In this document: positions 4,434-48,545 of the stretch, in pieces
Numbering within the stretch: the stretch's first letter is position 1
Layout of the letters: the number at the start of each line of letters is the position of its first letter
Notes under the pieces: model-generated
What the model was told of the DNA's origin: nothing
Database searches by the model: none
The model's input: the letters and a program-made list of their open reading frames with translations, nothing else
Virus record (IMG/VR): IMGVR_UViG_3300016265_001297
Span: 1 to 64,000 of that record
Direction: 5' to 3' (one strand)
Source: a virus
Taxonomy: Duplodnaviria; Caudoviricetes
DNA length: 64,000 nt
Program-made: the position numbers and the translations under genes

Positions 4434-4863
4434 TATCTCAGAAGAAGAACGGCAGCGTAGAAGCGAAAGAGCCAAAGAAATGGTTAAAAAGGGCATCATA
4501 GGAGGCGATAGACGCTCCGAAGGTGCTGGAAGGCCAAAGGTAAAGAAGGCTACCGAAAAAGTTGCAGAGGAAGCAGACAGAAACGCATCTAAAATGGTGA
4601 AAGAGCTTAAAGATGTTTTAGAAAACGGCAAGCCTAGTGAAAAACTTAAAGCTATTGATCTTTGGCTAAGTATTGCAATAAAAGAAGAAGAAAAAAGAGA
4701 TAAAAAAGAGCTTGAACAAATTAAAAATGCAAGTAGAGAAGAATTAATTAAGTTAGTTGGTCAACAGATAATTCCTTTGCTACAGAGCGGAATAAAAATT
4801 CCCGGGCTTGATCAAATCGAAGAAACAATTACAGTAGAGGCAGAAGAAATTAAAGATGAGTAA
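4405..4863 (+). CDS. probable terminase small subunit
   Basis: Basic N-terminus with GAGRPK, helical body, directly upstream of and overlapping the terminase large subunit. Confidence 0.6.
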   Translation: MSENKKKKINISEEERQRRSERAKEMVKKGIIGGDRRSEGAGRPKVKKATEKVAEEADRNASKMVKELKDVLENGKPSEKLKAIDLWLSIAIKEEEKRDKKELEQIKNASREELIKLVGQQIIPLLQSGIKIPGLDQIEETITVEAEEIKDE

Positions 4864-6646
4864 AGAAAAAGCAATCGAAAAAGCTTTAGAGAATCTTGAT
4901 GAAGAAGAATTAAGAGAGATTGCTTATAAACTAGAAAGTTTAAGCGCCTCTACAGACATAGAAGAAAAAAGGCCAGAGACTGATGATGAACTTCATGAAT
5001 GGTTTAAAAAAGCAGTAGGCGTAAACATACCAAAAGTAGCTGCTACTCCAGATACTAATGCTCCTTTTGAATGGGTTGCAGATTTGTTTTTTGGTAGAGA
5101 GGATTCTGCGCTAATTATTGGAAGCAGAGGTTCAGGCAAATCATTCATGGCGGCTTTATTAATTTTTGCAATTTGTTACTGGTTTAAAGATATTGAGTGC
5201 ATGACTCTTGGAGCAATTGAGATTCAGGCTAAAAGAGTTTATTCTCATGTCAAGTCTTTTCAGATGAAAGCAGAAGAAAAACTTGGAGATAATAAAGTTA
5301 AGTCAAGCCAAATGTCTGAAACTCATTATAAAACTGGAGCAAAATATGAAATTGTAACATCTTCTCTTTCTGCGGTAAACGGTCCACACAGCCAATTTGT
5401 TCACAGGGACGAAGTTGAACTTATGGACAAAGAAGTTTATAAAGAATCACTAAACATTGAAAAAAGTAAAAAATTAGACAACGGAGAGATGCTTCCAACC
5501 AGAACTCTTTTAACTTCAACAAGAAAAAGATCAGACGGCCTTATGCAATCATTGATAGAAGAATGTTTGAAAGCAGAATCAGAAGGAAGAAAACCTCCAT
5601 TTAAAATTTACAATACAAATATTTATGATGTTATAGAAAATCAACCAAACTGCAGGGCAGCAAATCCAGATTTGCCAGAAGAACAAAAATGTAAGTGTGA
5701 TCAAATTGTTAGTGGAGAATGGGAACCGGGAAAAGCAAGAACATTTGAAGATTGTTGCGGCGGAGTCCTAAATAAAGCAGACGGATTTACCCCAATAGAA
5801 GATGCACATAATATTTTTGTAAAATCTCCCAAAGCTTTATGGGAAGCACAGCAAGAAAATAAAAGGCCTTATACAGAAGATATATCATATCCTTTATTTT
5901 CTAAACAAAGACACGGTATAGCCAATTTTGTTATTGACCCCGCTAACGGACCAATTTTTTGTGGGCTAGATGTTGGAGGAACAAACCCTCACGCGGTTGG
6001 TTGGGCGCAACTACTAGAATATGAATTAGAAGTGGACGGACATAACGGAACTATAAAAAGAATTCCAGAAGGGTCGTTAGTTTTATTTGGAGAACTTTAT
6101 GTTTCAGAAATTGGAATTGTTGAGTTAGCTGAAAAAATTGTAAATAAAGAAAGAGAGTGGTTAGCTGAAGATAATGACTTCAGGGTTCAAGGAAGATTTA
6201 TGGACCCGCAAGCTAAAGCAGCAAAATTAGATTTAAAAAAGAATAAACCGCCACTAGATTTTACTAAATGGCCTGCTATGACAAGAGATAGAGAGGTTCA
6301 TTTTACTAGACTTAGGGAAAGAATTAACGATGATCTTTTTTATGTTGATACTGGAACTTGCCCAATGTTTTGTGAAGAAATTGAAGTTTATAACTTTAAA
6401 AATAAAGATTTTGACCATATGCACGACGCAGTTGCATACCTAAATTCTAATCTATATGCGCTTTTGAAGAAAGGAAAGCAAGGAACAGGCGTTCCAACAC
6501 ATAAAGACAAGGCTCCTATCCAGCGGCCTAACCAATTTTCTGATAAAATACCTAGTATAAGAAAAAAATCTGCTACAGGGCAGGTTGAAAGCATAGATAG
6601 CTGGAGGGAATCACTCCTTGTCCAAAAAAATAAATTTAATAGATAG
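4856..6646 (+). CDS. terminase large subunit
   Basis: IIGSRGSGKS Walker A, VHRDEVE Walker B, GLDVGGTNP and DHMHDA nuclease motifs. Confidence 0.92.
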   Translation: MSKEKAIEKALENLDEEELREIAYKLESLSASTDIEEKRPETDDELHEWFKKAVGVNIPKVAATPDTNAPFEWVADLFFGREDSALIIGSRGSGKSFMAALLIFAICYWFKDIECMTLGAIEIQAKRVYSHVKSFQMKAEEKLGDNKVKSSQMSETHYKTGAKYEIVTSSLSAVNGPHSQFVHRDEVELMDKEVYKESLNIEKSKKLDNGEMLPTRTLLTSTRKRSDGLMQSLIEECLKAESEGRKPPFKIYNTNIYDVIENQPNCRAANPDLPEEQKCKCDQIVSGEWEPGKARTFEDCCGGVLNKADGFTPIEDAHNIFVKSPKALWEAQQENKRPYTEDISYPLFSKQRHGIANFVIDPANGPIFCGLDVGGTNPHAVGWAQLLEYELEVDGHNGTIKRIPEGSLVLFGELYVSEIGIVELAEKIVNKEREWLAEDNDFRVQGRFMDPQAKAAKLDLKKNKPPLDFTKWPAMTRDREVHFTRLRERINDDLFYVDTGTCPMFCEEIEVYNFKNKDFDHMHDAVAYLNSNLYALLKKGKQGTGVPTHKDKAPIQRPNQFSDKIPSIRKKSATGQVESIDSWRESLLVQKNKFNR

Positions 6647-9119
6647 CCCATCAGAATCAGAGGCTGAAAAAAGAACAAAGCAGATTATAACTAGGAGAGA
6701 GCAGGGACCATCTACTGCTACTCAAACATTTTCTCACAGATTTTTTGATCAACAAGTAGCGGCATTAGGTCAGCCGTATGATGTAACTCATATTCCAATT
6801 GATGTATTGGAAATTATGCAGCGCGACCCTATAATCGCTTTCGGACTCCACTTTAAAAAGGTTCCTCTAATGAGGGCAAGATGGCACATTAAATGTGAAG
6901 ATGCAAAAATCGCTTCTTTTGTTGATAATGCATTAAGAGAAATTTATCCTAGACTAGTAGCACAATTTTATAGGTCAAGGTCATTTGGATTTTCTCCAGT
7001 AGTAAAAAGATTTCAAAAGTCTATGCCAGACTGGACTTATATTGATACTTCTATTTCTGATGAAGAAATTCCAGTATGGGAAGAAGGAAATGTAGAAGCA
7101 ATTACATGGAAAACATTTACTCCGCTTCCTTGTAACCCAGAATATGTTAATCCTATTTTCAATGCTAAGGGCGAGTTTAATGGAATAGAATTTAATCCTC
7201 AGCCCTACACAGGAGTTAACACATTTTCTTTTAAGTCTATTCCAACAGAAGACGGCACACAAAATATTCCGGTATCTCATTCACTTTGGTTTACAAATGA
7301 AAGAGATACAGTTGACGGTTCACTTTGGGGCTATCCCGGCACAGGATATGTTTATAGATATTGGTGGAGCTATTGGTATAGATGGGCGCTTTACGATAGA
7401 TTCTTTGAAAGAAAATCAGACCCGCCTTATGTAGTGTATTATCCAGATGGCTCAGAAGATGGAGATTATCTTGCCGGTGATGGAACAGACATTGGTAAAT
7501 CAATGCAAGATGTTGCTTTAGGATTAGGTGTTTCTGCTAAATCAGGCGGAGCAATTGCTTTGCCTTCACAAACTTATACAGATTCACAAGATAGACCCGG
7601 CTCAATAAGAGAATGGGATATTCAGGAGCTAGAAGTTAAAGGCGATATGTCACACTTTGTAAATTCTTTTGAATATCTAGATGTTATGAAATTGAGGGGT
7701 CTATTTATTCCAGAGCAAGCACTTATTGAAGGCGCTAAGGGACAGTCTTCAAGAAATGTAGCAGCCGCGCACCAAGATATTATGACACAGGCACAAGCAT
7801 CAGATATTGACGAACTTGACGATGTAATTAATAGGTTTATTATTCCAGACTTGGTAAAGGCCAATTTCCCTGAGTCTAATGTAACAGCTAGAAAAGTAAC
7901 AACAGGATTTACTGAGGCTGATTTCGATACTATGAAAGAAATTATTAGAACAGTAAGCCAACAAGATGCTACTATGATGAACTCAGTTGATGTTCAGGAA
8001 ATGCTAGATAGAATTGGCGTTCCAACAATCACTAGAAAAGAACTTCTGGCGCAAGAAAAGAAAATTGCGGAGGAAATTTCATCTTTAGGGCCAGAGCCAG
8101 TAGAAGCACAAAGCGGAGAAGCAGCAGGGGTAACAGAAACAGGCTTATACTATCAGCCAAGAGAAGTAATTAAATTTTCAGACGCTACAGAATTTATTGA
8201 TTCTTTGCCAGACATGAAATGTTACAAAGACACAGGAATTAAATCAGCCACTGGGCAGCTAAGGCGAATTTGGAAAAATAATTTTGAAGATGTTTATAAA
8301 GATTTTGCAGAGTATGTTAAAACAGCAAGCATTCCTTCGCAAGAAGAAGGAGTAGCCTTAGCAGAGATTGACCCAACAGAAGTAGTAGAAAATGTTTTGG
8401 CAGATTGGGATTATTCGGAAGCAAAAATTGGCGAAATTACTGATTTATCAGAAGAAATTGTCAAGAAAGTGATGGGCGTTGCTGCTAGAATAGAATTAAG
8501 TGAATTAAATTTTGAAAATAATTGGGAAATTGACAACGACGAAGTTGCTCAGTACCTAGAAGAAAAAGCTTTAATTTATGCAGATTCAATTAATGAGACT
8601 ACTAAAAACGAGTTGAGGTCATTTTTGGCGAAAGAAATTAGTGAAGGAAAAACTACAGAAGAAATATCAAAAGATATTACTTCACATTTTGCTAATTTTC
8701 CAACAACTAGGGCAAACAAAGTAGCGAGAACAGAAATTCGTGACGCTTACAACTTTTCTATTCTTTCTGCAGGAAAAGAAGCCGGAATAAATGTTGTGCA
8801 AGCTAAAGATGCTCAGTTAGGCCCAACAGACGAATATTGTGAAAATAGAAATAACCAATTTTACACAATTGAGGAAGCTTTTGACGAAACTCTAAAAGAG
8901 CATCCGTCTGGAACATTAGAATGGAGACTAATCCCTAATTTAACTTCTGTATCTGAAACAACTGTTAACGCATCTGAGCTTGAAGAAGGCGAAATTGGCT
9001 ACTTTGATGATAAAACAGAAACAATTTACTTTAGTGAAGATGCAAGCGAATTTGAAATTTCCGAATTTAGAACACTTTTGGGAGAAATGCTTGTTGAAGA
9101 ATCAATTTTGTATTATTGA
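6618..9119 (+). CDS. portal protein (DUF935/Mu gp29-like) fused to MuF-like head morphogenesis domain
   Basis: Follows terminase. DPIIAFGLHFKK...W, SFGFSPV..., GQSSRNVAAAH portal features. C-terminal RANKVARTEIRDAYN...HPSGT is MuF-like. Confidence 0.85.
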   Translation: MSKKINLIDSPSESEAEKRTKQIITRREQGPSTATQTFSHRFFDQQVAALGQPYDVTHIPIDVLEIMQRDPIIAFGLHFKKVPLMRARWHIKCEDAKIASFVDNALREIYPRLVAQFYRSRSFGFSPVVKRFQKSMPDWTYIDTSISDEEIPVWEEGNVEAITWKTFTPLPCNPEYVNPIFNAKGEFNGIEFNPQPYTGVNTFSFKSIPTEDGTQNIPVSHSLWFTNERDTVDGSLWGYPGTGYVYRYWWSYWYRWALYDRFFERKSDPPYVVYYPDGSEDGDYLAGDGTDIGKSMQDVALGLGVSAKSGGAIALPSQTYTDSQDRPGSIREWDIQELEVKGDMSHFVNSFEYLDVMKLRGLFIPEQALIEGAKGQSSRNVAAAHQDIMTQAQASDIDELDDVINRFIIPDLVKANFPESNVTARKVTTGFTEADFDTMKEIIRTVSQQDATMMNSVDVQEMLDRIGVPTITRKELLAQEKKIAEEISSLGPEPVEAQSGEAAGVTETGLYYQPREVIKFSDATEFIDSLPDMKCYKDTGIKSATGQLRRIWKNNFEDVYKDFAEYVKTASIPSQEEGVALAEIDPTEVVENVLADWDYSEAKIGEITDLSEEIVKKVMGVAARIELSELNFENNWEIDNDEVAQYLEEKALIYADSINETTKNELRSFLAKEISEGKTTEEISKDITSHFANFPTTRANKVARTEIRDAYNFSILSAGKEAGINVVQAKDAQLGPTDEYCENRNNQFYTIEEAFDETLKEHPSGTLEWRLIPNLTSVSETTVNASELEEGEIGYFDDKTETIYFSEDASEFEISEFRTLLGEMLVEESILYY

Positions 9120-9155
9120 TATAATTAAAAGTAACTATGAAGAGACAGGCCGAAA

Positions 9156-9659: not shown

Positions 9660-10808
9660 ATGTCAAAGGCTAAATATAAAAATCCTAAAGGTGGCCTAAG
9701 TGCCGCTGGTAGAAGGTATTATAAGAGAACAGAAGGCGCTAACCTAAAGCCCGGAGTAAAAAACTACTCTAAAGCCTCTACATCAGATAAAAAACGATGG
9801 GTAAGGTGGGCATTAAGATTTGCTGGAAGATCAACTATTCCGCCTCTAAGGAAACCTAACGGAGAACCAACTAGGTTTGCCCTAATGTTTACCGCTTGGG
9901 GAGAACCAGTACCTTCTTCTGTTGAAGCCGTAAGAAAAGTTTATAAAAAAGCTTTAAGTCGCCGCGATCAGTTGGGAATGGGAAAAGCTGCCAAAAAGAA
10001 AATTAACGCTGAAGACAAAATTTTTTCTTTAAACAGAAATCAAATTAATTTTGGTAGCGTAAAAATTGATGTAGAATCAGGCAACCCTTACCGCGACCCA
10101 AACACAGGAAAATTTTCTTTTGGAATACCCGGAGTTAGGTTTTATGCCGGGTTAGCTTTATTTAAAAATCTTCCAAAAGGAACAAAAGATTTAGTGACTC
10201 AAAAGATTTTAGCTTTTGGAGGCAATGTAGTTGGCTTAAGACAAACAGGAGATAAAGTAAATGTTGTTGTTTTAAAAGATGGAAGACTTTTAGGAAAATT
10301 TTCTGTTGATATAAATAGTCAGGTAGTAAAAACAGAAGAAAATTCAGCACAAAAAGAAGTTCAAACAAATTTTTCTTCTCAGGAAAAAGACGCAATTATT
10401 GATGCAGCAAGAGATTTAGATTTAAATGATCAATTATTAAAAAACTTTTTATCAGAAAGACTTTCAATAGAAATTGATGAACAATTATTAACTCAGCTAG
10501 CATCACAAGTGGAAAGCCAAAGAATTGATGATTTAATTAGTTATTTAGATAGCAATATGGTAAGAAAAAGCGAAGAAAGCAACAGCAGAATGGTCAGAAT
10601 TAGAGCGCCGCGAGGATACCTTAGAAAAATTTTTAGTCTTCTAGACGAAAACCAAGTTTCTGATATAATTCAAAGGCTTGAAGCAAAAGGTTGGCAACAA
10701 GACCAAGTAAATTCTGAAATTATTGAAAATTTGCCATCAAGATTAAAAAATAAATTTGTATCAGAAGGGGAAAATGAGCAAGGAAACAACTCCACAACAG
10801 AAGGGTAG
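9660..10808 (+). CDS. DUF6321-like basic N-terminal domain protein
   Basis: KNPKGGLSAAGRRYYKRTEGANLKPGVK...GEPTRFAL...AWG recognised as DUF6321-like. Internal NPYRDPNTGKF motif. Confidence 0.65.
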   Translation: MSKAKYKNPKGGLSAAGRRYYKRTEGANLKPGVKNYSKASTSDKKRWVRWALRFAGRSTIPPLRKPNGEPTRFALMFTAWGEPVPSSVEAVRKVYKKALSRRDQLGMGKAAKKKINAEDKIFSLNRNQINFGSVKIDVESGNPYRDPNTGKFSFGIPGVRFYAGLALFKNLPKGTKDLVTQKILAFGGNVVGLRQTGDKVNVVVLKDGRLLGKFSVDINSQVVKTEENSAQKEVQTNFSSQEKDAIIDAARDLDLNDQLLKNFLSERLSIEIDEQLLTQLASQVESQRIDDLISYLDSNMVRKSEESNSRMVRIRAPRGYLRKIFSLLDENQVSDIIQRLEAKGWQQDQVNSEIIENLPSRLKNKFVSEGENEQGNNSTTEG

Positions 10809-11187
10809 AGATTACGAAGATTTTTGGGCTAAAAAAAGAGGCGCAAGAAAACAGCCCGCGTCCGGCGCTTTACCTTTTTGGAAATTAGATGTAAAAAATA
10901 CAAAATTTCTTTTTTCTCTTAAAAATACAGAAAAAAACTCGTTTTCTTTAAAAAAAGAAGAAGTTCAAGAAATGATAAACGCAGTCTATGGATTAGGCGG
11001 CATAGGCGGCACACACATACCAGTTTTGTCAATAAACATTAATGGTACAGAAGTTAGTGTGTTGCTTACTGATGATTTAATTGAACTTACTGAAAAAAAT
11101 GAAGCAGTTTTTGATAAAACAAAAGATAAGCAAAAAAGAGAAAAAGCAAACTTACCTTCATTATTAAGAAAACAAAAGGAAAATTAA
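10774..11187 (+). CDS. Hjc-like PD-(D/E)XK resolvase/nuclease
   Basis: KGRDYE...PASGALPFWKLDV...FSLKNTEKNSFSLKKE. Confidence 0.65.
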   Translation: MSKETTPQQKGRDYEDFWAKKRGARKQPASGALPFWKLDVKNTKFLFSLKNTEKNSFSLKKEEVQEMINAVYGLGGIGGTHIPVLSININGTEVSVLLTDDLIELTEKNEAVFDKTKDKQKREKANLPSLLRKQKEN

Positions 11188-11196
11188 ATAAATTAC

Positions 11197-11205
11197 TGAT
11201 ATAAT
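11197..11205 (+). promoter_or_regulatory. extended -10 promoter TGATATAAT
   Basis: Exact TGn-TATAAT 10 nt after the stop at 11187, A-rich upstream. Confidence 0.65.
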
Positions 11206-11210
11206 TTATT

Positions 11211-11313
11211 ATGACTGTTATACAGTCGCCGCAAACTTCTTTTCTGGTGTTTTTCCCTTTCCATCAGTTAATTTGTTTGCTTGTGGGGGCAGGTTTTCCT
11301 GCCCCCACTTTTT
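11211..11313 (+). ncRNA. candidate small RNA with anti-Shine-Dalgarno-like loop
   Basis: Bounded by promoter and terminator. Stems GACTGT/ACAGTC, GCAAAC/GTTTGC and CTGGTG/CATCAG; 12-nt loop TTTTTCCCTTTC. Confidence 0.55.
11283..11313 (+). terminator. intrinsic terminator
   Basis: GTGGGGGCAGG-TTTT-CCTGCCCCCAC then TTTTT. U-tract on the + strand only. Confidence 0.9.
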
Positions 11314-11581
11314 AATACTCTATATTAGATGGTTTATCCCAAGTAATACTTATTTGTAATTCTTCTAGTTCTTTTAAAGCTTCATTTAATATGTTAAAAG
11401 CTTCCCACAAATCTTCTGCTAAAAAATAAACAGTAAAACTTACTGTTCCAGAACTTTCATCAAATTCCCACTCACCATTGTAAACAAAAATTTCAGAAAG
11501 TTTCGAATTTACTAAATAGTAAAAATCAAAAAATGAAATCGAATTGCCGTCAGCGTAAATATTTGTAGTAAATTCGTTCAT
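11312..11581 (-). CDS. hypothetical acidic protein
   Basis: 89 aa, coupled to the deaminase. Confidence 0.55.
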   Translation of the reverse strand: MNEFTTNIYADGNSISFFDFYYLVNSKLSEIFVYNGEWEFDESSGTVSFTVYFLAEDLWEAFNILNEALKELEELQISITWDKPSNIEY

Positions 11582-11582
11582 A

Positions 11583-12077
11583 TCATACCCTCATTTTGCT
11601 AGCATACTTAGAAAAAGTTGCTCCAGACTCCATACCTTTATTATACAGATAAAGAGAAGATTCTTTATTCAAAACCCAAGAGCCGTCATTGAGCTTTTCT
11701 GGATAATAAATATAATCAATTTCTCTTCTTGCTAAAGAAGCAGCACAACTATAACAAGGCCTAGAAGAAGTTGCTACTCTTCCAGACTGATTCAATGTCA
11801 AAACCAATATGCTATACCCAGAAAGGTTTCCATAAATTTTTTGTAGCGCGTCTGCTTCTGCGTGAACACTATTAGTGCTTACCAAACTATCAATTCTATC
11901 ATTAGAACAACCAGCCGCTATTATTTCTGCTGTTTTATTATCAAAAATTACAGCACCAGTTTTAAACCTAGCAAAAGTTGATCGGCTAGATTGTTTTGCT
12001 GCCGCTTTCCAAATTTCATCGAACTGTCGCTCAGTAAATTTTTCTATATAAAAATCTTTAGGATAATTATTTAACAT
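11583..12077 (-). CDS. zinc-dependent cytidine/dCMP deaminase family protein
   Basis: TGAVIF, SVHAEADA and SRPCYSCA motifs. Confidence 0.88.
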   Translation of the reverse strand: MLNNYPKDFYIEKFTERQFDEIWKAAAKQSSRSTFARFKTGAVIFDNKTAEIIAAGCSNDRIDSLVSTNSVHAEADALQKIYGNLSGYSILVLTLNQSGRVATSSRPCYSCAASLARREIDYIYYPEKLNDGSWVLNKESSLYLYNKGMESGATFSKYASKMRV

Positions 12078-12163
12078 TTTGTCCTTTTTGGCTTGCTGGC
12101 CTGTGTGAAGACACTATATCAGACGGGCGACAAAGCCGCAGACAAAATTATGCAAAAAGTCTT

Positions 12164-16334: not shown

Positions 16335-16408
16335 GGGGAAGTAACTCAAATAGGTAGAGTAGCAGACTTTTAATCTGATGGTTATGGGTTCGATTCCCAT
16401 CTTCCCCA
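16335..16408 (+). tRNA. tRNA-Lys(TTT)
   Basis: GGGGAAG/CTTCCCC acceptor stem, loop CTTTTAA, T-loop TTCGATT. No encoded CCA. Confidence 0.92.
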
Positions 16409-16416
16409 TAAAACTT

Positions 16417-16488
16417 GCCGCTATGGTCTAATGGTCAAGACACTAGTTTTTCACGCTAGTTATCTGAGTTCGATTCTCAGTAGCGGTA
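16417..16488 (+). tRNA. tRNA-Glu(TTC)
   Basis: GCCGCTA/TAGCGGT acceptor stem, CTAGT-TTTTCAC-GCTAG anticodon arm, T-loop TTCGATT. No encoded CCA. Confidence 0.9.
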
Positions 16489-16574
16489 TAATTTCTTCAC
16501 ACAGAAAAAATGCGGTACGGTAGTATTGTCTTAGCGGTAGAGAACCGCACCAAAACAAAGAAAGAGAGAAAATT

Positions 16575-28389: not shown

Positions 28390-28508
28390 GCTTTAGAAAA
28401 TACTGACGAGTTTGACACCAAAAAATATTCGATAGTTTAGACTAGCGGTAGCGGGTGAGTCACTACAACCGACCGCCCCGAGGAAACAGAAAAACAGGAA
28501 AGGAAAAT

Positions 28509-28895
28509 ATGTCGCTCGATTGGAATCTGGAAAACATAGAAGATTATGAAAATATTTGTTGGGAAGTGAATGAGAAAACAGGAGAAAAGTATATGAATCC
28601 TATAACTCACTCACTTATTTTTGCGACAATATCAGTAGGGATAAGTGAAATCACGCAAGATAATGTCGCAGAGTTTTACAACAGGACTATTCTGACAGCC
28701 AATGTTTATGGTGAACCTATAAGTGAGTTTCCAGAAGAAGGCGGAATAGTTAGAAGAAACTATACTTTCGAGGAAGTAAAGCAACATATTGGGCTATCAA
28801 CAAATGCCAGCCATTATTCCGATAAGGAGTTTATGGAAAAAGTAAACAACGCCCAAGCCCAAAATCAAAAAGATTTGGAAGTATTCAATAAGTAA
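28509..28895 (+). CDS. conserved phage hypothetical protein
   Basis: MSLDWNL...LIFATISVG...EFYNR...HIGLSTN; ATG after GGAAAGGAAAA. Confidence 0.6.
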   Translation: MSLDWNLENIEDYENICWEVNEKTGEKYMNPITHSLIFATISVGISEITQDNVAEFYNRTILTANVYGEPISEFPEEGGIVRRNYTFEEVKQHIGLSTNASHYSDKEFMEKVNNAQAQNQKDLEVFNK

Positions 28896-31080
28896 AAGGA
28901 AAGGAATATCAAAATGATTGATGAAATGTTTGATAAAGATTTTCATACTGATTTCATAGTCAAAATCCATAACTATATTAGTTATGACGAAACTGAAGAG
29001 TTAGTTTCGTATGATATTGATATTGTAAAATGTTGGCAGGAAATATTTGTGAACGATGATGAAGCAATAATGTTTATGAAAGAAGTAGGAATCCTAAATA
29101 ACCCAAAGAAACTTTTGGCAACAGTTTTGGGAACAAAGATTATGAGGATAATGGAAAAAGAAGTCAGGCGCACAACGGATTCTCAAAATCCTATTACTGA
29201 TAGAATAATTGAAATGATATATGTTTTGATTATTGATGAAGTTTCTTCCGCAAGCATAGACTTTGGAGAAAATAAGAATCTAGTTTTGGAGGTAGAAAAT
29301 GCCAACCTATGAACAAATAAAAGATTTTAGCCAAGATGAGTTTTTGATAAATGAAATCAAAAACTTTTTTGAGAAAAAAGGAATCTGTTATAGGCACGAA
29401 GTAGATAAATGGTCCACCAGATTTCTTATAAATCATTTTATTGAGATTTATGAAGGCGAAATAGAAGATTTTATTCTTCAAGTAAATATCAAAAAAGATT
29501 TCGCACAATAAAATAGGAAAGGAAAAAATGAATAACTCAATTTATAATCTGATTACTTATTGCGTAAATGATGCGTCTGGAAGTAATGATAAAGAATATG
29601 TTGGCATAAATAGTTTTCAGGCATCAGAAATCATTGACGGTTATGTAAAAATTGATTGTAGCAAAATAGTAGAAGAAGTTTTTGACAAAGTAGAATATAT
29701 TGATTCTAATAGAGAACAACTAATTGATATTCTAAATAATATGGAAATAGCAGAAGTTTTTGACGCAACATTATTTTCAGAAGATAATGAGCAAATAATA
29801 GGCGCAATAACAATAAGCAGAACCCGATGAAAGACTTATTCGTAGAGTTTTTTCCCAAGTAGTATTCTGGCTGGTATGATCGCGGGTGCGCGGGTGAATC
29901 ACCACAACGGAACGCCCGAGGATACAGAAAAACAGGAAAGGAAAAGTAAATGCCAGAACTACATCTAAAAACCAAAACCGGAACTGAAAAGTGGATTCTG
30001 GATGAGTATTACAGAATCGGGCCGAAAACCGGAAAACTGATTGATTATTCTGTAACCCAACAAATAATCGAAAACCCAAACGGTATTTTGGAACACAAAT
30101 ATCGTTTGGAATTTGTTTTCCAAAATGACCAAGAGGAATGGTCATACGGAATGTTGATAACCGATTGGTTGTCGTAAACAGGAAAGGAAAAAAGTGGAAA
30201 AAAAGGAAAAAGAGTACAGCGAAAAAGAAGTCAAAGCAGTAGCGCAAGTTATAGCGGATATAACAAAACTAGACCCGAATAAAAATTTGGCAAAAGTTTA
30301 CGCGAAAAGAATACTTGACGCGATTAGCGAAAGCCAAAACTAAAAACAGGAAAGGAAAAATGTTTACAAGAGGCGAAAAATGGGATGTTCTATTCGCAAT
30401 AAAAGGCGAAATAAATAAGTGTAATACAAGGATAATAACCCTTGACCAAAAGGATTCAGAAAGCCTTATCGCTTATTACGAAGAACAAGTCGAAAATCTA
30501 AAACGGTTAGCACAAAAGATAGAAGATTCTCCTACGATATGGGAGGAAAGGTAATGCTACACGAAAATCAAATACCAGAGCCAGAAACTCATATGGTAGA
30601 ACTTACCTATTATGAGAAATGTTTAGTCCAAAAGATATTGAGAACATATCAATATCTAATGGAAAATCCAGAATCAGAACTAAAAATCACAGAAGAGGCT
30701 CGCCAAGCAAAAGACATAGAAAGAATAGTAAAAAGGATGGGGATATAAAAATGGAAATCCTTGCCTTTATCTACAAAGCAATAATGCTAACAATAACTGT
30801 TAGTGGTATTGCTTTTTTGTTATTTCTATCGGTTATTTGGATGGTAGAAGATTATAAGGAAAGGAAATAAAATGGCTTCAAAAAGAATCATAAAACAATA
30901 CGCAAATAACAGAATCCTGATGGAAGAAATAAAAGAGTGGATATATGATTGCGGATATGGTGATATGAAAACCATAAACGCACATTCCAACCTTCATATT
31001 GTAAGGTGTATGGATAAAGAATATGCGGGAGGAATAGAACAGTTCATAATAGATTGTGACCTATTAGAAATCGCATAAAC

Positions 31081-31137
31081 TATATGGTATGGTGAGCGAT
31101 AAATCTATATGGTATGGTGAAAGGTATATGGTATGGT
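31081..31137 (+). repeat. three direct repeats of TATATGGTATGGT
   Basis: Copies at 31081, 31106 and 31125. Confidence 0.9.
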
Positions 31138-31396
31138 AAAAGAAATAATGATAATGGCAAAAGATAGTGATGGTGAGATAATCGAAAAAGAAAATCAGAT
31201 TGATTATCTTGACATTATAACAAAAGTTACAATCTATTTTGAGAAATACATAAAAAATGCCGAACAGAAAAAGATTGATAAGTTTATTGATGAACTATTG
31301 ATAAACGGTTCAGCAAACTGTATTTCAGAAAACAATAGAAGAATGATTGAGGCAACAGCAATAAAAGCGTAAAAAAGAAAAAAATAAAGGGAATCT

Positions 31397-31424: not shown

Positions 31425-32059
31425 ATGGGAAAATCGCCCCACCTAAGAAAAACCTATAAATATTACCTATAAACTAACTATAAAAGACCTAAAACAAAAC
31501 ACACCGTATATAGCGTAAAACAAATAGATACTTACAGAATAACTCCATATATGGAATAAAAACAAAAATAACCAATAAAATAAATAAAACCTTTCAGTTT
31601 ATAGCAATAATCAAAAGAAAAAGACAATATCTTGCTGAGTTATCTAATCTTTCAGAAAAAATCTTTTGTTCAAACCAAAAAGAAAAAAGAAAAAGTTTGC
31701 GGAAAAAATAAATAAATAAGACATAAACTAATACGAAAGGCATAACATAAGGCAAATAAGATATAGAAAAAAATATTCAAAAAGTTTATACTCAAGTTTT
31801 ATTCGGCGTGATAGTATATGTTTATAGCCAAAGAATAAACCGAGGGCAAAATCTGCCCCGGTAAAAAGAAAGGAAAAAAGAAAGTGATAACTATTACAAT
31901 CACAGAAGAAGAAGTAGAAGTAATCCAGAAGGCTATGTGGAAAGAAGAAGAAGAAATAGATTGGATTATTCAGAGTGAAAGATTCACTAACAAAGCAACA
32001 ATAGAAGCACAAAAGGAAAAGAAAAAAATAAATAGCATTAGAAATAAAATCTGGCAAGC

Positions 32060-32265
32060 ACAATAAAAAAAAGAAAAAATAAATCAGAAAGAAAAAAAGA
32101 AAATGAAAAAATAAATAATAAAAAAAATAAATAAGAAAAAAAATAAAAAGAAAAAAATAATAATAAACATAAAACAAAACAGAAACAAACATAAACAACA
32201 ACAAAGACTAACAGCAAACAGAAACACCTAACAACAATAAGAAAGAATAATAAGAAAGTGAAAGA
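32060..32265. other. extremely A-rich low-complexity non-coding tract
   Basis: Long A runs, very few G or T on the + strand. Confidence 0.85.
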
Positions 32266-32275
32266 ATATATCTGG

Positions 32276-32292
32276 CCCGCCCGCCCCCGCCC
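32276..32292 (-). other. canonical G-quadruplex motif
   Basis: + strand CCCGCCCGCCCCCGCCC = minus strand GGG-C-GGGGG-C-GGG-C-GGG. Confidence 0.75.
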
Positions 32293-32328
32293 TGCCGCCA
32301 TAGCCTACCACATTCTGAGCGTCCGTTG

Positions 32329-32344
32329 TGTGAGATTCGTCACA
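32329..32344. promoter_or_regulatory. CRP/GlxR-type operator
   Basis: TGTGA-GATTCG-TCACA, exact TGTGA-N6-TCACA. Confidence 0.55.
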
Positions 32345-32397
32345 TAACGAATATATGTGAAACTTACCGGACTCCTAACAGTTTCCTAACATTACTT

Positions 32398-32406
32398 TGA
32401 TACTCT
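32398..32406 (+). promoter_or_regulatory. extended -10 promoter, leaderless-transcript geometry
   Basis: TGA-TACTCT, 7 nt before ATG 32414, no SD. Confidence 0.5.
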
Positions 32407-32413
32407 CTCCGGT

Positions 32414-32764
32414 ATGAAGTCCAACAGCGCAGAGAGCGCAGCCGGGAAGACCGGCCAACAGTCAGCCCGAAAGGGAAACAGCCGTCCCGCTCCGGTAATG
32501 AGGAAGCGGGGCAGGCCGAAGGGAAGTACCGATCAGTCCCGCGAGGCCGACCGCGCCGAGTTTCTGGCAGCGGTAGAGAAGGAGGCCGCGAAGGGTCCGG
32601 GGTGGATTGACGAGGCGGTAGAAGCCGTCCAGTCCAGCCGGGAAGGACGGGGCAAACCCCGGTACACCGAGTCCAGCCTACGCCAGACGCTGACCGCCTG
32701 GGGTCGTGAGGCCGGGTTCACCATCCAGCGCCACGAAGAAGGTTGGGCCGCCGAGAAGCGGTAG
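32414..32764 (+). CDS. GC-rich AT-hook protein
   Basis: 116 aa with RKRGRPKG AT-hook. Codon usage strongly GC-biased relative to the rest of the window. Confidence 0.7.
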   Translation: MKSNSAESAAGKTGQQSARKGNSRPAPVMRKRGRPKGSTDQSREADRAEFLAAVEKEAAKGPGWIDEAVEAVQSSREGRGKPRYTESSLRQTLTAWGREAGFTIQRHEEGWAAEKR

Positions 32765-32765
32765 C

Positions 32766-32817
32766 CCGTCCTCGACGGTGGGGTAGCGGTCGGGGTGGAA
32801 ACGCTCCGGCCCTACCC
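32766..32817 (+). terminator. tandem GC hairpins without U-tract after the AT-hook gene
   Basis: CCGTC-CTC-GACGG, then GGGTAG-C-GGTCGGGGT-GGAAAC-GCTCCGGCC-CTACCC. Confidence 0.6.
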
Positions 32818-33127
32818 TATAGCTGTTCATAATTTGTCCCTGAAGTTTCGATATTTTCGTTAGTAGTTTTGATTCATTTGTGTTATAGGTGAAATCGCCC
32901 TATGTAAATAGCGGTTTGGCCCCTTAAAAAATGAGTTTTGCCTTTTAGCAAAGACCTATCTTTCTAGTGATTTACCCTATGTAAATATATATAATATACT
33001 AGGTTTTGAGTATTTTGTTAGTAGTTTTGTGTTAAGATGCTACTGTTTTTCTCAAAAATCGCCCTTAAAACTCTAAGCTTGTCACCATTTGGCTATGTAA
33101 ATGCTTTATTTGGCTTATTATTGTCTA

Positions 33128-33209
33128 TGCTAGGGGTAGGAATCGAACCTACATAGCCTGCGGCGACAGATTTACAGTCTGCGGGACTCACCACCTGTCC
33201 AACCCTAGC
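33128..33209 (-). tRNA. tRNA-Tyr(GTA)
   Basis: GCTAGGG/CCCTAGC acceptor stem, GCAGA-CTGTAAA-TCTGT anticodon arm, long variable arm, T-loop TTCGATT. Confidence 0.92.
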
Positions 33210-33353
33210 TTGTTTTTGAGTAAATCTTCTCTTAGGCGCTTTCTCAGAGCTTTCTATGGCTTAATTTATATTTTAGAAGCTGCTTCTTTAGAAAATTGCC
33301 TGTGGGCCGAAACCATCACAAAAATCACTCAAATTATTAGTTAAAACCTTTAG

Positions 33354-33641
33354 TTATTCCTCGTCAATTTCTTCTAGGTCTTTTTCCCATTTAGCGTGTA
33401 GCTTTTCACTGTATTTACCGAACTTATCAAGTGAGTTTGAAGGAACTGCTTTTGCATTATTAAGTTGGCTTGCTAGTCTTTCGGCCTCTTCTTGATTAAT
33501 ACCTAGAGGGCTTTGTAGATATACTAGCTTATCTTCATTTGCATGGCCCTTTCCACCAACTACTGACCACCTTTCAATATCTGGAAGGCTTTGCGGCTTT
33601 ACAGCCTTTACTCTAAATGCTGATACTTTCTTTTTGCCCAT
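33354..33641 (-). CDS. hypothetical protein
   Basis: 95 aa, coupled to 33643. Confidence 0.55.
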   Translation of the reverse strand: MGKKKVSAFRVKAVKPQSLPDIERWSVVGGKGHANEDKLVYLQSPLGINQEEAERLASQLNNAKAVPSNSLDKFGKYSEKLHAKWEKDLEEIDEE

Positions 33642-33642
33642 T

Positions 33643-33879
33643 TTAAGAGTGACAGTAGCTAACTAGTGCGGTAACAACAGGATTAGTTTCTGCTGAGTAC
33701 GCTACGGATTCTACTATAAAAGGCTCTTCATCAACCATAATGTAATCTCCTTCGCGTGGCACAAATCCAAAATCTACATTTTCTCTTACTACGGCCTCTT
33801 CGCCTTTTGCTCCAGCTTTAATTAGCCCACCGTCATAAAGGCTAGTTAGCGGAACATTGTTTTTAGTGTTAGTAAACAT
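33643..33879 (-). CDS. hypothetical protein
   Basis: 78 aa, AAGGTG RBS. Confidence 0.55.
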   Translation of the reverse strand: MFTNTKNNVPLTSLYDGGLIKAGAKGEEAVVRENVDFGFVPREGDYIMVDEEPFIVESVAYSAETNPVVTALVSYCHS

Positions 33880-33934
33880 TAATCACCTTTTCCTTCTTTG
33901 GTTTTAAGGCAACGCAAGACGCGCCACCAATAAA

Positions 33935-33971
33935 GACTGTATCACGGAGAATAAATTCTGTGCAAAAACTT
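33935..33971 (-). promoter_or_regulatory. leftward promoter
   Basis: AAGTTTTTGCACA...TGATACAGT. The 13-mer is identical at 35639-35651. Confidence 0.55.
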
Positions 33972-33975
33972 GTAT

Positions 33976-34188
33976 TTAAGACTTTTTCCTTTCTTTTAGG
34001 CCCATACCAGCCCCTCCGTTAGTGCCTCCCTTTACTTTGCCAAAAATTGAAGACTTAGAATAGTCCCTTTTCATTGGAATTTTACAGTTTGGGCAATTTT
34101 CACTGTATTTTTCTACATTAACTAGGCTGAAAAAGTAAAAAGTGTCTTTATGCCCACATTCGTGGCAAATCATATCATAGATGGGCAT
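33976..34188 (-). CDS. FmdB-like zinc-ribbon protein
   Basis: MPIYDMICHECGH...CPNC. Confidence 0.8.
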   Translation of the reverse strand: MPIYDMICHECGHKDTFYFFSLVNVEKYSENCPNCKIPMKRDYSKSSIFGKVKGGTNGGAGMGLKERKKS

Positions 34189-42544: not shown

Positions 42545-44077
42545 TTGTCCGAAACAATTTTATTTGACCAAAATGAGAATGAATCAGATAACTCTTTGGG
42601 ATATGAGGTTTTTATGTCCGAAGGAGATACCATTGAAACAGAAGATGGTCTTATTTGGAAAGAAGTTTTAAGAGAGGGAACTTGGTCTTATAGGCCCGGT
42701 CCCGGCCATAAACCTCTAGCTAAACCACTAAGCATTGTAGCAGGGAACTCTACCAATGAAGATGAAATTGGTATGGCAGACCTTATTGACGCTTTTGAGG
42801 ATAACGCAATTGATCACATTACAGTACCAACTAGTCATGATGATAAGCCTCATGAAAATACTGGTTATGTAAGAAAGCTACAGCAGGGAGTTAGAAATGG
42901 CCGTAAAGTTTTGATGGCTGGCCTTGAATTTACAGAGCCTGACATTAAAGAAAAGGCTATTAGGGGTTCTATTGCTAATACTTCCGCAGGAATTATTGCA
43001 GGGTATATTAATAAGCTAACCGGAAAAACATATAAATATGCACTAGGCCATATTGCTTTAACAAATAAGCCGTGGATTAGTGGCATGACCCCTTTCGGAG
43101 CAAATTCTAACTTTTCAGAGGACAACATTATTCCAGTTGCTATTGAGCTTTCATCATACATGGATGGTGAAGATAGCCAAAGCGAAGAAGGAATGGCCGC
43201 AGAGTTTCTTGACGAGCTTCTAATGGCTTTTATGGACAAGGATTCAGAGAAACTAGCCGATATTTTCTCAGCATTTGAAGGCAAGTGGCCTTCTGCTTGG
43301 GATAGGCCAATTTCAGAAATGCTTTATGAGGGAAGGGAAGACGATTTGAATACGCTTAGAAAAATCGTAGATGAATTAAAGGGAGCTAAAAGCGAGACTT
43401 TTGATAAAGACTTTTTTGAGAGAATGCTTTCTAGCATGGATTTCTCAGAAGAAAATTTCGGGGAAAGCTCAGATAATGAGTCCCACGAAAACGAGGAAGA
43501 AGATGATTCTTCCGAAGATGAAGGCGCTGATTCAAGCGCTTCTAAAGACGATGAAGACAAAAAAGGAGGTAATGATATGTCTGAATCTTCAACCGAAAGC
43601 GTAGAGTCAGATAAGACTGAGCTTTCCGAAGATGTTACTACCGACCTTCTTAATGAGCATAAGGCCGAATTCTCAGAGCAGCTAGCCGAAAGGGACGCTG
43701 AGATTGAGAAACTACGGTCAGAAGTTCATGAGAACAAGGTTGATAAGAGCATTGAAGACCTAAAGGCATTGGGGTTCTCAGAGTTCCCCGGCTTCCTAAA
43801 GGCTGTTAGGGATATTTACCTAGCAGATGTTAAGGAAGCTAGCATTATCACTCTTTCAGAAGAGGATGGTTCAAGTGTTGAGCTATCAGCTTCTGAGATT
43901 GTAGATAGAATCATTAAGTCTCTCCCTACCGAAGAGCTATTTAAGCACTCTTTCTCAGATAACATTACCAGCATGGACGATCACGGTCGGCCCGATGTTG
44001 GTCTTTCTGATAATGAGCGTGGCGAGCGGTTGGCAGAGCATCTTGGCATTGAGTTGCCAAAGGATGGTGATAACTAA
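42545..44077 (+). CDS. capsid maturation protease-scaffold
   Basis: EVLREGTW...SHDD...TGYV...SAGI...HIALTNKPWI protease-like N-half, acidic/coiled-coil C-half, upstream of the capsid genes. Confidence 0.8.
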   Translation: MSETILFDQNENESDNSLGYEVFMSEGDTIETEDGLIWKEVLREGTWSYRPGPGHKPLAKPLSIVAGNSTNEDEIGMADLIDAFEDNAIDHITVPTSHDDKPHENTGYVRKLQQGVRNGRKVLMAGLEFTEPDIKEKAIRGSIANTSAGIIAGYINKLTGKTYKYALGHIALTNKPWISGMTPFGANSNFSEDNIIPVAIELSSYMDGEDSQSEEGMAAEFLDELLMAFMDKDSEKLADIFSAFEGKWPSAWDRPISEMLYEGREDDLNTLRKIVDELKGAKSETFDKDFFERMLSSMDFSEENFGESSDNESHENEEEDDSSEDEGADSSASKDDEDKKGGNDMSESSTESVESDKTELSEDVTTDLLNEHKAEFSEQLAERDAEIEKLRSEVHENKVDKSIEDLKALGFSEFPGFLKAVRDIYLADVKEASIITLSEEDGSSVELSASEIVDRIIKSLPTEELFKHSFSDNITSMDDHGRPDVGLSDNERGERLAEHLGIELPKDGDN

Positions 44078-44496
44078 TGGCTTGGAACATTCGTAAAGAA
44101 TCAAAGAGTGTTAAGAAGGAAATTCTAAAGTTTCCTGCTGGTCTTGACGCGCAAGAGTCAGTAGTTCTCCGAGCTTCTGGTGCGCCTACTGTTGCATCAG
44201 CAACTGTTGGTTATGCAGGCCAGAAGGGTTATCTAGCCGGAACAATTCTAAAGAAGGTTAACCCCGGCACAGACGATAGGGTAACTAAGTACAATGGTTC
44301 AGGAGATATTGTTGGTATTCTAGCTGACAATGTTTTCTTTGACGGTGAGACAACAGACTACGACGAGCCTATTAACATGTTCGTCCACGGCTGCGTCTTT
44401 AACAAGAATAACATCATTGACTACGCAACCTACGAGTCCGATCTTAAGAGCGATCTATACACTTGTCGCTTTGAAGATGTAAACACACAACAGTAA
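44077..44496 (+). CDS. head decoration protein
   Basis: AGTILKK...VGILA...VHG pattern, between scaffold and MCP. Confidence 0.7.
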   Translation: MAWNIRKESKSVKKEILKFPAGLDAQESVVLRASGAPTVASATVGYAGQKGYLAGTILKKVNPGTDDRVTKYNGSGDIVGILADNVFFDGETTDYDEPINMFVHGCVFNKNNIIDYATYESDLKSDLYTCRFEDVNTQQ

Positions 44497-44510
44497 GGAG
44501 TCTGATTTAT

Positions 44511-45569
44511 ATGTCATACGAGATTGATGTATTCGATCAGGCCGCTCTAACTGATGTAATCAATAGGTCATTCCAGTCACGCGAGGATGGTTCTCCGTCA
44601 GTTGGCGCTCAGATTGCGCCGCTACGCCCCGTCCAGTCACGCTCAGTGAAAGTGAACGGTCGAATCGTAAACGGTAACGGCCTCGGTCAGCTTCGTGCGC
44701 CGGGAGCCACACCACCGCTCTACGAGCCTACCGCTAGCTTCGAAGAGTCAGTGATTGAGCTTGCCCTACCAGACGAAATGCATCGCATTAACGAGGAAGA
44801 TTACTTGGCTCTAAGGTCTAACGATGTTAATTACAGGCGTAAGGCCGGAGTTGAGCTAGTAGAGCGGGTTGAGTCTCTAGTAGTAAGGAACATTAACCGT
44901 ACTGAAAAGATGCGGTGGGAAGCATTTAGTGGTGAAGTTACACTTGAGTACGCAAGTGGAGCTACACTAACTGTTGACTATGATGTTCCCGCAACAAACA
45001 AGCCGTCAGCTTCTGTTCCGTGGCAGAACACTGCCACATCAGACCCAATTGCTGACCTAAAGGCTTGGCAGAAACTAACTGCTAATGAGGTTGGCGCTTA
45101 TGGTACTAAGATTCACATGTCTTCTGAGGCATATGATCTTATGATCGCAAGCGACAAGCTAGTTCAGAAACTAACTGGTTCTGAGCGTCCACTATATGTT
45201 CCTACCCGGGATGATGTTCTTTCACTTCTCCGGGCCGGAACCGAAATCATCATTTATGATGGTGGTTGGAGGCCAGATGGCAGTTCCGACCGTGGAATTG
45301 ATGGTCTAAACCGATTCTTGCCAAAGGACAAGGTTCTAATCACTACTGATTACAGCCTTAACGGTCAGCGTATTGCTGATACTCCTGATGGTCAGGTCTT
45401 GGTTGGTAACAGTATTAACTCTGCACCAGTCATTCGACAGGGCGCACAGACTGAAATCATTTACGACCAGATTTCACATGAGCATCTAGTCCGTTACGCA
45501 TCAGCACGAATTGTAAGGCTTCATGAGCCGGGTGCTTTTGTTTACGCAGATGTTGGAACAGTAGTCTAA
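44511..45569 (+). CDS. major capsid protein (lambda E-like family)
   Basis: RTEKMRWEAFSG...VDYDVP...W...SDPIADLKAW; elevated GC/optimised codons. Confidence 0.88.
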   Translation: MSYEIDVFDQAALTDVINRSFQSREDGSPSVGAQIAPLRPVQSRSVKVNGRIVNGNGLGQLRAPGATPPLYEPTASFEESVIELALPDEMHRINEEDYLALRSNDVNYRRKAGVELVERVESLVVRNINRTEKMRWEAFSGEVTLEYASGATLTVDYDVPATNKPSASVPWQNTATSDPIADLKAWQKLTANEVGAYGTKIHMSSEAYDLMIASDKLVQKLTGSERPLYVPTRDDVLSLLRAGTEIIIYDGGWRPDGSSDRGIDGLNRFLPKDKVLITTDYSLNGQRIADTPDGQVLVGNSINSAPVIRQGAQTEIIYDQISHEHLVRYASARIVRLHEPGAFVYADVGTVV

Positions 45570-45579
45570 TATTGAATAA

Positions 45580-45849
45580 ATGGCTTTTGAAGTATTACAA
45601 GACGGAGCCACTATTCACACAGTAACTGATAGGGGCGGGGTTTCCGAAGATGGAAATCCCGTCCTAGTTACTGTTTCTGTAGTATGTAAAAAAGGAGATA
45701 TTCTTGAGGATAAAGAAATTTCTCCGGTTATTCTAGAGCTTTATGAGTCAGGCGATGAAAGAATTCGAAGCCTAATCAAGAAAAAAGAGCAAAAGAAGGC
45801 CACACCAAAAAGAAAACCAGCAGCTAAAAAAACAACTGCTGATAAATAA
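45580..45849 (+). CDS. small head-associated protein
   Basis: Follows MCP, Lys-rich tail. Confidence 0.5.
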   Translation: MAFEVLQDGATIHTVTDRGGVSEDGNPVLVTVSVVCKKGDILEDKEISPVILELYESGDERIRSLIKKKEQKKATPKRKPAAKKTTADK

Positions 45850-45996
45850 GTCATAAACAATCATTTGATTGTTTTTATTTAAAAGGCTAAATTATGGATA
45901 GATTTATTATTTGCAAACATAATATTGAAAAAAATAAACTATCGCAAAAGCCTTTTTATATTTTTAGTAAACGGCAACCTTGTTTAGAAGGTTAAA

Positions 45997-46305
45997 ATGC
46001 CATTTACTCCTAAAAACTGGAAAGACTTTCCAGATAAGTCAACACCTATAACAGCAGATTCACTTAAAGACTTAGAACAAAGAGTATATGACGCTGCAGC
46101 GGCTGACGGAGATAAGTTTTATCAGCATACTCAATCTACGCCTTCTGCTAGCTGGACTATTACTCATAACTTGGGTAAAAAACCAAGTGTTACTGTTGTT
46201 GACTCTGGTGGGACTGAATGGCAAACCGAAGTACAACACATAGATGAAAACCAATGCATTGCTAGATTCTCAGCACCTTTTTCTGGCAAAGCATATTTAA
46301 ACTAA
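45997..46305 (+). CDS. virion structural protein (THNLG repeat type)
   Basis: WTITHNLGKKPSVTVVDS. Confidence 0.6.
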   Translation: MPFTPKNWKDFPDKSTPITADSLKDLEQRVYDAAAADGDKFYQHTQSTPSASWTITHNLGKKPSVTVVDSGGTEWQTEVQHIDENQCIARFSAPFSGKAYLN

Positions 46306-46321
46306 AGGAGGTATTTAAGTT

Positions 46322-47809: not shown

Positions 47810-47810
47810 T

Positions 47811-48545
47811 ATGACAAAATATCTCGGCCCCAAAGTAGCAGGAACAGCTTTATCTACACAAGATGATGTTAATTCATTGATTCAAGCTTCTGCAACTCCG
47901 CCATCTTCTCCTTCAACTGGAGATTTGTGGTTGGACTCTGACAATGGCAGCTTGTACATTTATTATGATTCATCTTGGATTACTCCTGTTGCTGTTGGGG
48001 CGGGGATTAAAACTTCATCAGCACAAACTATTACTGGAACAAACACAGAAGGTAGCTCTAATAATTTGGCAAGAGCAGATCACAATCACGCAATAGGTTC
48101 TGGAGTTATTGGAACTTCTCAGCTTTCTTCAAGCGTTGGAAATTTTAGTGCTTGGACTTCTTATACTCCTACACTAACAGCCAGCACAACTAATCCAACT
48201 TTAGGAACTGGCTCTACTGCAGAAGGATTTTACTGTCAGATTGGCAAAAGCGTATTTTGGAGAGCTAATATAACTTTTGGAACAGCTTCTGTAAACGCTG
48301 GAAGTGGATTTTATTTTATTTCTTTGCCGGTTACAGCTAAAGCAGCAGGATTTTTAACCCCTATGGGTAGCTTTGTCGCAGAAGATGTTAGTACAGGAAC
48401 AAGATATATGGGCGCTGCTGCTTATGATAATACTACAAGAGTTGCTATGCAAAGAAACGCTGCTGGAGCATTTCAGGCAACTGACCCAATGACTTGGGCA
48501 GCATCTGATTATATTAGAATTCAAGGAGTTTACGAAGCAGCATAA
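47811..48545 (+). CDS. fibre/receptor-binding-like protein 1
   Basis: GDLWLDSDNG module plus WTSYTPTL...YCQIGK C-terminal domain. Confidence 0.65.
   Translation: MTKYLGPKVAGTALSTQDDVNSLIQASATPPSSPSTGDLWLDSDNGSLYIYYDSSWITPVAVGAGIKTSSAQTITGTNTEGSSNNLARADHNHAIGSGVIGTSQLSSSVGNFSAWTSYTPTLTASTTNPTLGTGSTAEGFYCQIGKSVFWRANITFGTASVNAGSGFYFISLPVTAKAAGFLTPMGSFVAEDVSTGTRYMGAAAYDNTTRVAMQRNAAGAFQATDPMTWAASDYIRIQGVYEAA

Follow-up and report, generated by a model that had tools for sequence, protein, structure and literature searches.

The plus-strand stretch 11211-11313 is very probably a genuine small-RNA gene and belongs to a new family borne by phages. It is a predicted stand-alone non-coding unit of ~103 nt carried by an uncultured freshwater or aquatic phage lineage. 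In the mechanism proposed here, transcription by the host RNA polymerase would begin at a sigma-70-type promoter and end at an intrinsic terminator, and transcripts of the upstream gene for a 137-aa protein would probably also read through the RNA unit. The stems of the RNA drift by compensatory change, with the apical loop and its core UCCCUUUC as the only strictly constrained sequence. Acting in trans, the seed formed by this loop would pair with Shine–Dalgarno (SD)-like purine tracts that are rich in G, of the GAAAGGG(A) kind, and the pairing would occlude ribosome-binding sites (RBSs), as the UCCC and CU-rich loops of RsaE and LhrC do. Candidate targets are a few GGG-containing RBSs of the phage, including that of the adjacent resolvase-like gene, the GGAAAGGA class, which would pair more weakly and with a bulge, and host mRNAs. 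That the RNA acts through pairing of its loop with SD-like purine tracts is suggested by its sequence and by analogy with such systems, and is on balance probable.

The window analysed here covers the initial 64 kb of an IMG/VR virus record of 75.9 kb, which is estimated to be ~70% complete. Several studies contributed metagenomes with near-identical DNA, of freshwater, aquatic, and estuary origin. Of 20 sequencing runs that contain the stretch, none is recorded as RNA, contigs from four sequencing runs yielded near-identical strains only, and a blastn search of positions 10700-12100 against GenBank phages returned no match. The RNA unit is flanked by convergent genes, the plus-strand gene ending with its stop at 11187 and the minus-strand gene with its stop at 11312 (Table 1). 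Elsewhere in the window, the GC content is 0.42-0.44 at 32000-34000 and 44000-48000, against ~0.36 in the remainder, and the GC skew changes sign at 32-38 kb, a region of leftward genes. At 31077-31145, the end of the rightward small-gene block, a 25-nt unit is repeated three times in tandem (core TATATGGTATGGTGA), and a regulator or a replication protein might bind to these repeats.

Table 1. Features of the RNA unit and of the genes around it.
Feature	Positions	Strand	Remarks
Large terminase gene	4856-6646	+	Start of the plus-strand block upstream of the RNA unit
Portal-MuF fusion gene	6618-9119	+	
DUF6321 protein gene	9660-10808	+	
Second TGATATAAT element	10661-10669	+	Inside the DUF6321 gene, ~105 nt before the 137-aa gene; promoter scan 10/12 with TG
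137-aa protein gene	10774-11187	+	PHROG 2002 match, 'Holliday junction resolvase'-like; last gene of the plus-strand block
Extended -10 promoter TGATATAAT	11197-11205	+	Exact motif; predicted transcription start ~11211-11213, inferred from spacing
5' hairpin	11213-11227	+	6-bp stem and 3-nt loop in the minimum free energy (MFE) fold
Central long hairpin	11231-11280	+	Outer stem 11231-11236/11275-11280, internal loop, inner stem 11244-11249/11262-11267
Apical loop UUUUUCCCUUUC	11250-11261	+	12 nt, core UCCCUUUC; presumed pairing or binding site
Intrinsic terminator	11283-11313	+	11-bp GC-rich stem, 4-nt loop, and U-run; hairpin 11283-11308 followed by the T-run
89-aa protein gene		-	Stop at 11312; downstream neighbour of the RNA unit
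dCMP deaminase gene	11583-12077	-	Precedes the 89-aa gene

The exact extended -10 element reported by the first-pass annotation is present, and, with both strands counted, the 64-kb window has only eight TGNTATAAT sites, this one included; elements of this type also lie ahead of divergent operons at ~35.5 and ~38.7 kb. Within 2 kb ahead of the RNA gene, a further exact TGATATAAT occurs at 9117-9125, where it overlaps the stop of the portal gene. The ~100-nt unit folds as had been described, with an outer stem of GCAAAC/GUUUGC and an inner stem of CUGGUG/CAUCAG, the latter containing one G-U pair. For the RNA 11211-11318, the MFE is -45.1 kcal/mol (z -8.4), a value equalled by none of 200 shuffled sequences, and the fold without the terminator still gives a z of -5.7. 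The 7x7 internal loop between the two stems had been called a pyrimidine loop, which holds for its 5' side; the 3' side reads UUAAUUU and is not all-pyrimidine, and the MFE structure places two U-A pairs inside the loop. The terminator is specific to one strand, as claimed, being detected on the plus strand, while on the minus strand no U-run follows the hairpin. The apical loop remains open, with an unpaired probability of 0.97, even inside a long read-through transcript. A covariance model (R1), built from the seven sequences described below, finds a single copy of the RNA in the whole 75.9-kb record.

The unit encodes an RNA rather than a protein. The 34-codon ORF that overlaps it (ATG 11211) is broken by in-frame stops in three relatives (L002, L004, and L006), its start codon is absent in L003 and reads TTG in two others (L002 and L007), the relatives have indels of single bases and of 3-5 nt, and no SD sequence precedes ATG 11211. 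A small ORF or RBS on the minus strand, at GGAAAGGG, was considered and rejected, as no start is conserved there. At curated thresholds, the unit matches no Rfam family, and the best sub-threshold scores for 11150-11340 (cmscan, E <=10), namely VrrA at 29.7 against 50 and the L20 leader at 27.1 against 58.7, come from matches that align mostly to the terminator, the VrrA match being driven by it. ARAGORN does not identify the unit as a tRNA or tmRNA, and reports three tRNAs elsewhere in the window only. These tRNA genes of the phage, for tRNA-Lys(UUU), tRNA-Glu(UUC), and tRNA-Tyr(GUA), lie at 16335-16489 (+) and 33128-33209 (-). An anti-CRISPR RNA or repeat mimic was rejected by reasoning, because variable stems with a conserved loop are the reverse of what a repeat mimic would display.

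Relatives of the unit were reached on contigs retrieved through relatives of the flanking 137-aa protein, and the first clade comprises the window unit and L002-L007 (seven members). As all members of the family were found through this protein, both the apparent spread of the RNA and its linkage to the gene are biased by the way in which they were collected. The 137-aa protein is 80-97% identical to that of the window in five relatives, 61% identical in L003, and 36% identical in L008, a member of the second clade. In the five closest relatives, the RNA unit occupies the same place, and the extended -10 element is unchanged save for TGTTATAAT in L007. In L003, the unit is displaced and lies directly after an opposite-strand gene, with TGCTATAAT directly upstream; its position behind a divergent gene, with a promoter of its own, indicates a separate transcription unit and not merely a 3'UTR.

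The structure of the RNA is maintained across this first clade by changes on both sides of its stems. The stem of the 5' hairpin is kept with different sequences (arms GACTGT, GTTAGAT, or GATTGTT), and one compensatory pair was counted in this helix, where the alignment is imperfect. In the two helices of the central hairpin, both-side changes are found in 12 of 15 pairs among the seven members. In the covariance check on the whole structure, 16 of 31 pairs show both-side changes, a count reached by none of 500 shuffles, and sliding the partners by 1-3 columns leaves 2-6. The apical loop is the same in all seven members, bar one extra C in L002 and L003, and the intergenic region outside it has a mean identity of ~70%. 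The terminator is kept in the relatives, and its G-C to G-U changes preserve pairing on the plus strand only; a C>T variant at 11304, seen in another sample's contig, likewise yields a G-U pair. The seven members score 70-118 bits with R1, and nothing significant was detected by this model in ~300 kb of other loci.

In IMG/VR, scanning with the flanking protein, P0007, and P0008, with the exact loop, or with a pattern of promoter, gap, and loop gave chance matches or none. A loop-gap-terminator pattern gave 22 matches on genome contigs of unrelated taxa, of which the model confirmed none, and a host or prophage was not found in this way. A metagenome scan with the protein alignment recovered 16 distant loci (30-49% identity), in which a coding gene lies downstream without an RNA unit. 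At these distant homologues (L046-L061, e.g., L047:2900-2960), the next gene runs in the same direction and encodes a conserved motif, FHPSLISKGV.CQLWW, and the pyrimidine runs found there are coding sequence and form no RNA loop.

A second, distant clade, consisting of L008 and loci fetched with relatives of its protein (L062-L067), has a longer RNA in the corresponding genomic place, where it directly follows the homologous gene and faces a convergent gene on the minus strand. Its promoter is of the full sigma-70 type, with TTGAAC or TTGACG, a 17-nt spacer, and TATAGT, TATTGT, or TATTAT. The RNA begins with a 5' hairpin (arms GAGCG/CGCTC), which is followed by a long central hairpin and a terminator, a layout that was matched by eye to that of the first clade, and 19 of 40 pairs are compensatory. 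The apical loop of the central hairpin contains UCCCUUUC, or UCCCCUUUC in L008, and the core UCCCUUU forms the apical loop in L008, L062, L064, and L065. The UCCCUUU(C) core resides in the apical loop of all 11 distinct sequences of both clades; the length of the loop ranges from 8 to 13 nt between the clades, and the core alone is kept. Because R1 gives L008 only 6.5 bits, which is no detection, the link between the clades rests on layout, position, and loop core, and these sequence features suggest that the second clade belongs with the first. Three of four RNAs of the second clade also contain a conserved GGAGGUA..CUAAG just before the terminator (~L008:2695-2710, L062:2228-2242, and L064:3600-3615); no start codon comes after this stretch, and its predicted pairing partner is the pyrimidine-rich 5' end (UUCUUCU). 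These RNAs therefore carry an SD-like element beside an anti-SD-like loop.

The first-pass annotation had proposed that the loop is directed against an early class of RBSs, and its description of this class held. The GGAAAGGAAAA RBS occurs in six copies, all on the plus strand between 26964 and 30349, five of them just before called starts and the sixth (29935) ahead of an ATG that was missed by the crude gene caller. The (A/G)GAAAGGA class is likewise real, with 27 plus-strand sites, 19 of which lie in 12.2-31 kb; GAAAGGA is found at 20 sites located 0-20 nt upstream of called starts, and the structural block (38.7-62 kb) has the most AAGGAG(G) sites. A repeated leader of ~25-31 nt (ACAGAAAAACAGGAAAGGAAAA type) precedes several small genes (28477-28511, 29505-29530, 29915-29949, 30176-30211, and 30344-30379), and two of its copies are 97% identical over 31 nt, so that duplicated leaders account for part of the early RBS class. 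The pairing of this class with the loop had also been drawn correctly, as 7 bp with one bulged C followed by U:A pairs, and amounts to ~-10.5 to -11.7 kcal/mol.

The specificity of this pairing was evaluated by calculating the duplex energy between the loop and the start region (-25 to +6) of each of 128 crudely called genes. The mean energy is -7.7 kcal/mol in the 12-31 kb block against -5.1 kcal/mol in the rest, and shuffled loops match the real one on this block in 195 of 500 cases by the mean and in 135 of 500 by the count of regions at or below -10. On the seven GGAAAGGAA leaders, 140 of 1000 shuffles (14%) are as good as the real loop, as are 222 of 1000 (22%) on the twenty GAAAGGA leaders, and the specificity claimed for early RBSs was thus not borne out: purine-rich RBSs stick to any pyrimidine loop of such composition. 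The energy of the loop on the GGAAAGGAA class (-11.0 kcal/mol) is comparable with that of the generic 16S tail (-10.3 kcal/mol). The best partners of the loop are four RBSs that contain GGG or GGGG, at 10774, 70567, 26120, and 3781. Both clades keep unchanged the CCC that has to be bulged against GGAAAGGAAAA (L008 has CCCC), which points to a GGG-containing partner rather than to GGAAAGGAAAA. No perfect complement of the loop exists in the phage, bar the gene's own opposite strand, and many coding-region sites across the genome pair with the loop better than any RBS, so that in silico prediction cannot name the target.

The top partner among the 128 start regions belongs to the neighbouring 137-aa gene (AGAAGGGGAAAAUG), which forms 11 bp with the loop, including one G-U pair, at -14.9 kcal/mol. 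The corresponding region ranks best or second best in the L002, L004, and L005 loci. In the second clade, L065 has a perfect GAAAGGGA at the RBS of the homologous gene, and in L008 the 5'UTR contains GAAAGGGGG, opposite the CCCC loop of this RNA. This gene has a TGATATAAT element of its own at 10661, nine bases that are invariant in five relatives while nearby codons vary; judged from its sequence, the element is likely a promoter internal to the DUF6321 gene, and the RNA unit would form the 3' end of its transcript. An identical promoter element is accordingly shared by the 137-aa gene and the RNA, and the mRNA of this gene should end with the RNA unit. The 137-aa protein gave no match in PDB or Pfam, and its predicted structure is poor (pLDDT 52).

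Several explanations compete with the proposed seed pairing at SD-like tracts. It had originally been suggested that a late-made RNA silences the whole (A/G)GAAAGGA class and so acts as an early-to-late switch, an RNA counterpart of T4 RegA. The reality of the class, the conservation of the loop, the computed energies, and the finding that this class supplies five of the ten start regions with the largest gain from the real order of the loop all speak for such a switch. It is nevertheless unlikely, given the performance of shuffled loops, the bulge demanded at an invariant C, and the four GGG-containing RBSs that outpair the early class. Moreover, a second pairing segment that had been proposed, CUUCUUUUCU (11236-11245), is not conserved in the relatives, and the sampled neighbouring early genes of these relatives mostly use AGAAAGGA, which reaches only ~-8 kcal/mol with the loop. 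Nor was a basis found for the claim of late expression, as a host-type promoter, sigma-70-type extended -10 in the window and full -35/17/-10 in the second clade, gives no reason to expect it. A dedicated module, in which the RNA regulates the adjacent nuclease gene through its RBS and limits or times a possibly harmful nuclease, acting in trans or forming the 3' end of the mRNA of the 137-aa gene, draws on the top rank of this start region, on the adjoining position of the two genes in both clades, and on their identical conserved TGATATAAT. We consider it rather unlikely, because pyrimidine loops of any kind stick best to this start region, which ranks first in 12% of shuffles and is constrained by the upstream coding sequence in which it lies. 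In addition, L062 has AGAAAGGU at the start of the homologous gene and L003 lacks GGG there, cis pairing of the loop with this RBS is not predicted in the 643-nt transcript, and the presence of the gene at every RNA locus found is biased, as these loci were fetched through its protein.

The loop might instead be recognised by a host or phage protein with affinity for pyrimidine-rich single strands, for which the RNA would be a decoy or scaffold. A strictly invariant 12-nt open loop amid variable stems is typical of protein recognition, an invariant open loop suits a protein-binding site equally well, and the base-pairing predictions are unspecific. Such a role is nonetheless quite unlikely in our estimation, as no candidate protein is known, the motif matches known RNA-pairing seeds (PMC2790875, PMC4132741), and a loop of variable length in which the core alone is kept fits a linear seed better than a protein site. 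It is very unlikely that the unit lacks a separate function altogether and represents only a structured 3'UTR and terminator belonging to the packaging operon, or else serves as an antisense buffer where two transcription units converge. Its location between convergent genes, a terminator that serves the plus-strand operon, and minus-strand transcripts that, without a terminator, would run antisense through the unit are all compatible with this explanation. However, a spacer is not expected to have a conserved promoter, to be relocated together with its promoter as in L003, or to combine a near-invariant loop with compensatory stems, and the full sigma-70 promoter of the second clade is equally unexpected for a mere spacer. 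Seed pairing of the loop with SD-like tracts remains the preferred explanation.

To our knowledge, the regulatory RNAs characterised from phages are few, and hardly any come from uncultured environmental phages. The present RNA gene is cleanly bounded and is kept in two deeply diverged phage clades with a single near-invariant 8-nt core. If the loop occludes RBSs, phages would share the C-rich seed logic of Gram-positive sRNAs to steer translation, and the loop, the adjacent nuclease gene, and the RBS class would together form a model for RNA-level control of phage genes; if the loop binds a protein instead, a new RNA–protein pair would be at hand. A bolder version of the pairing mechanism, in which the RNA is a phage-made competitor of the ribosomal anti-SD tail that reprogrammes translation in the course of infection through a sequence-defined subset of RBSs of the phage, the host, or both, as an RNA counterpart of T4 RegA, strikes us as improbable.

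Among known systems, the Cuckoo, CcsR, and alpha-r14-type sRNAs of Alphaproteobacteria consist of repeated hairpins with a CCUCCUCCC-type motif, whose stems vary and whose anti-SD-like loop is conserved. The phage RNA resembles them in its variable stems and conserved, pyrimidine-rich, anti-SD-like loop, and differs in having a single loop with UCCCUUUC; the ar15 model, which is related to alpha-r14, gives the unit 16.3 against a threshold of 40. The T4 RegA protein competes with the ribosome at the start regions of ~30 messages (PMC3014915), and offers a functional analogy only, as RegA is a protein that reads A+U-rich sites at the AUG, whereas the agent proposed here is an RNA. In staphylococcal RsaE, a conserved unpaired UCCC binds mRNAs and prevents formation of the initiation complex (PMC2790875). 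Like RsaE/RoxS and other Rsa sRNAs of Staphylococcus and Bacillus, the phage RNA is ~100 nt long, with a promoter, an intrinsic terminator, and a conserved unpaired C-rich motif (PMC2790875); unlike them, it is encoded by a phage, has one loop in place of their several C-rich regions, and is known here from sequence alone. RsaE/RoxS (RF01820) is not among the cmscan matches for 11150-11340 (E <=10), nor was it found in a gathering-threshold scan of the window. In Listeria LhrC (RF00616), redundant CU-rich sites act on the lapB RBS (PMC4132741), and the two RNAs have in common a CU-rich loop or single-stranded site, a similar size, and a hairpin-plus-terminator layout (PMC4132741). LhrC possesses three redundant CU sites and several gene copies, in contrast to the one site and one copy of the phage RNA, which scores 19.4 bits with the LhrC model against a gathering threshold of 110. 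The likeness to sRNAs with UCCC loops, which had been pointed out from the outset, fits the invariant core, which itself contains UCCC. By analogy, and though it stands outside those families by model score, the phage RNA would work most like the UCCC- and CU-loop sRNAs of the Firmicutes.
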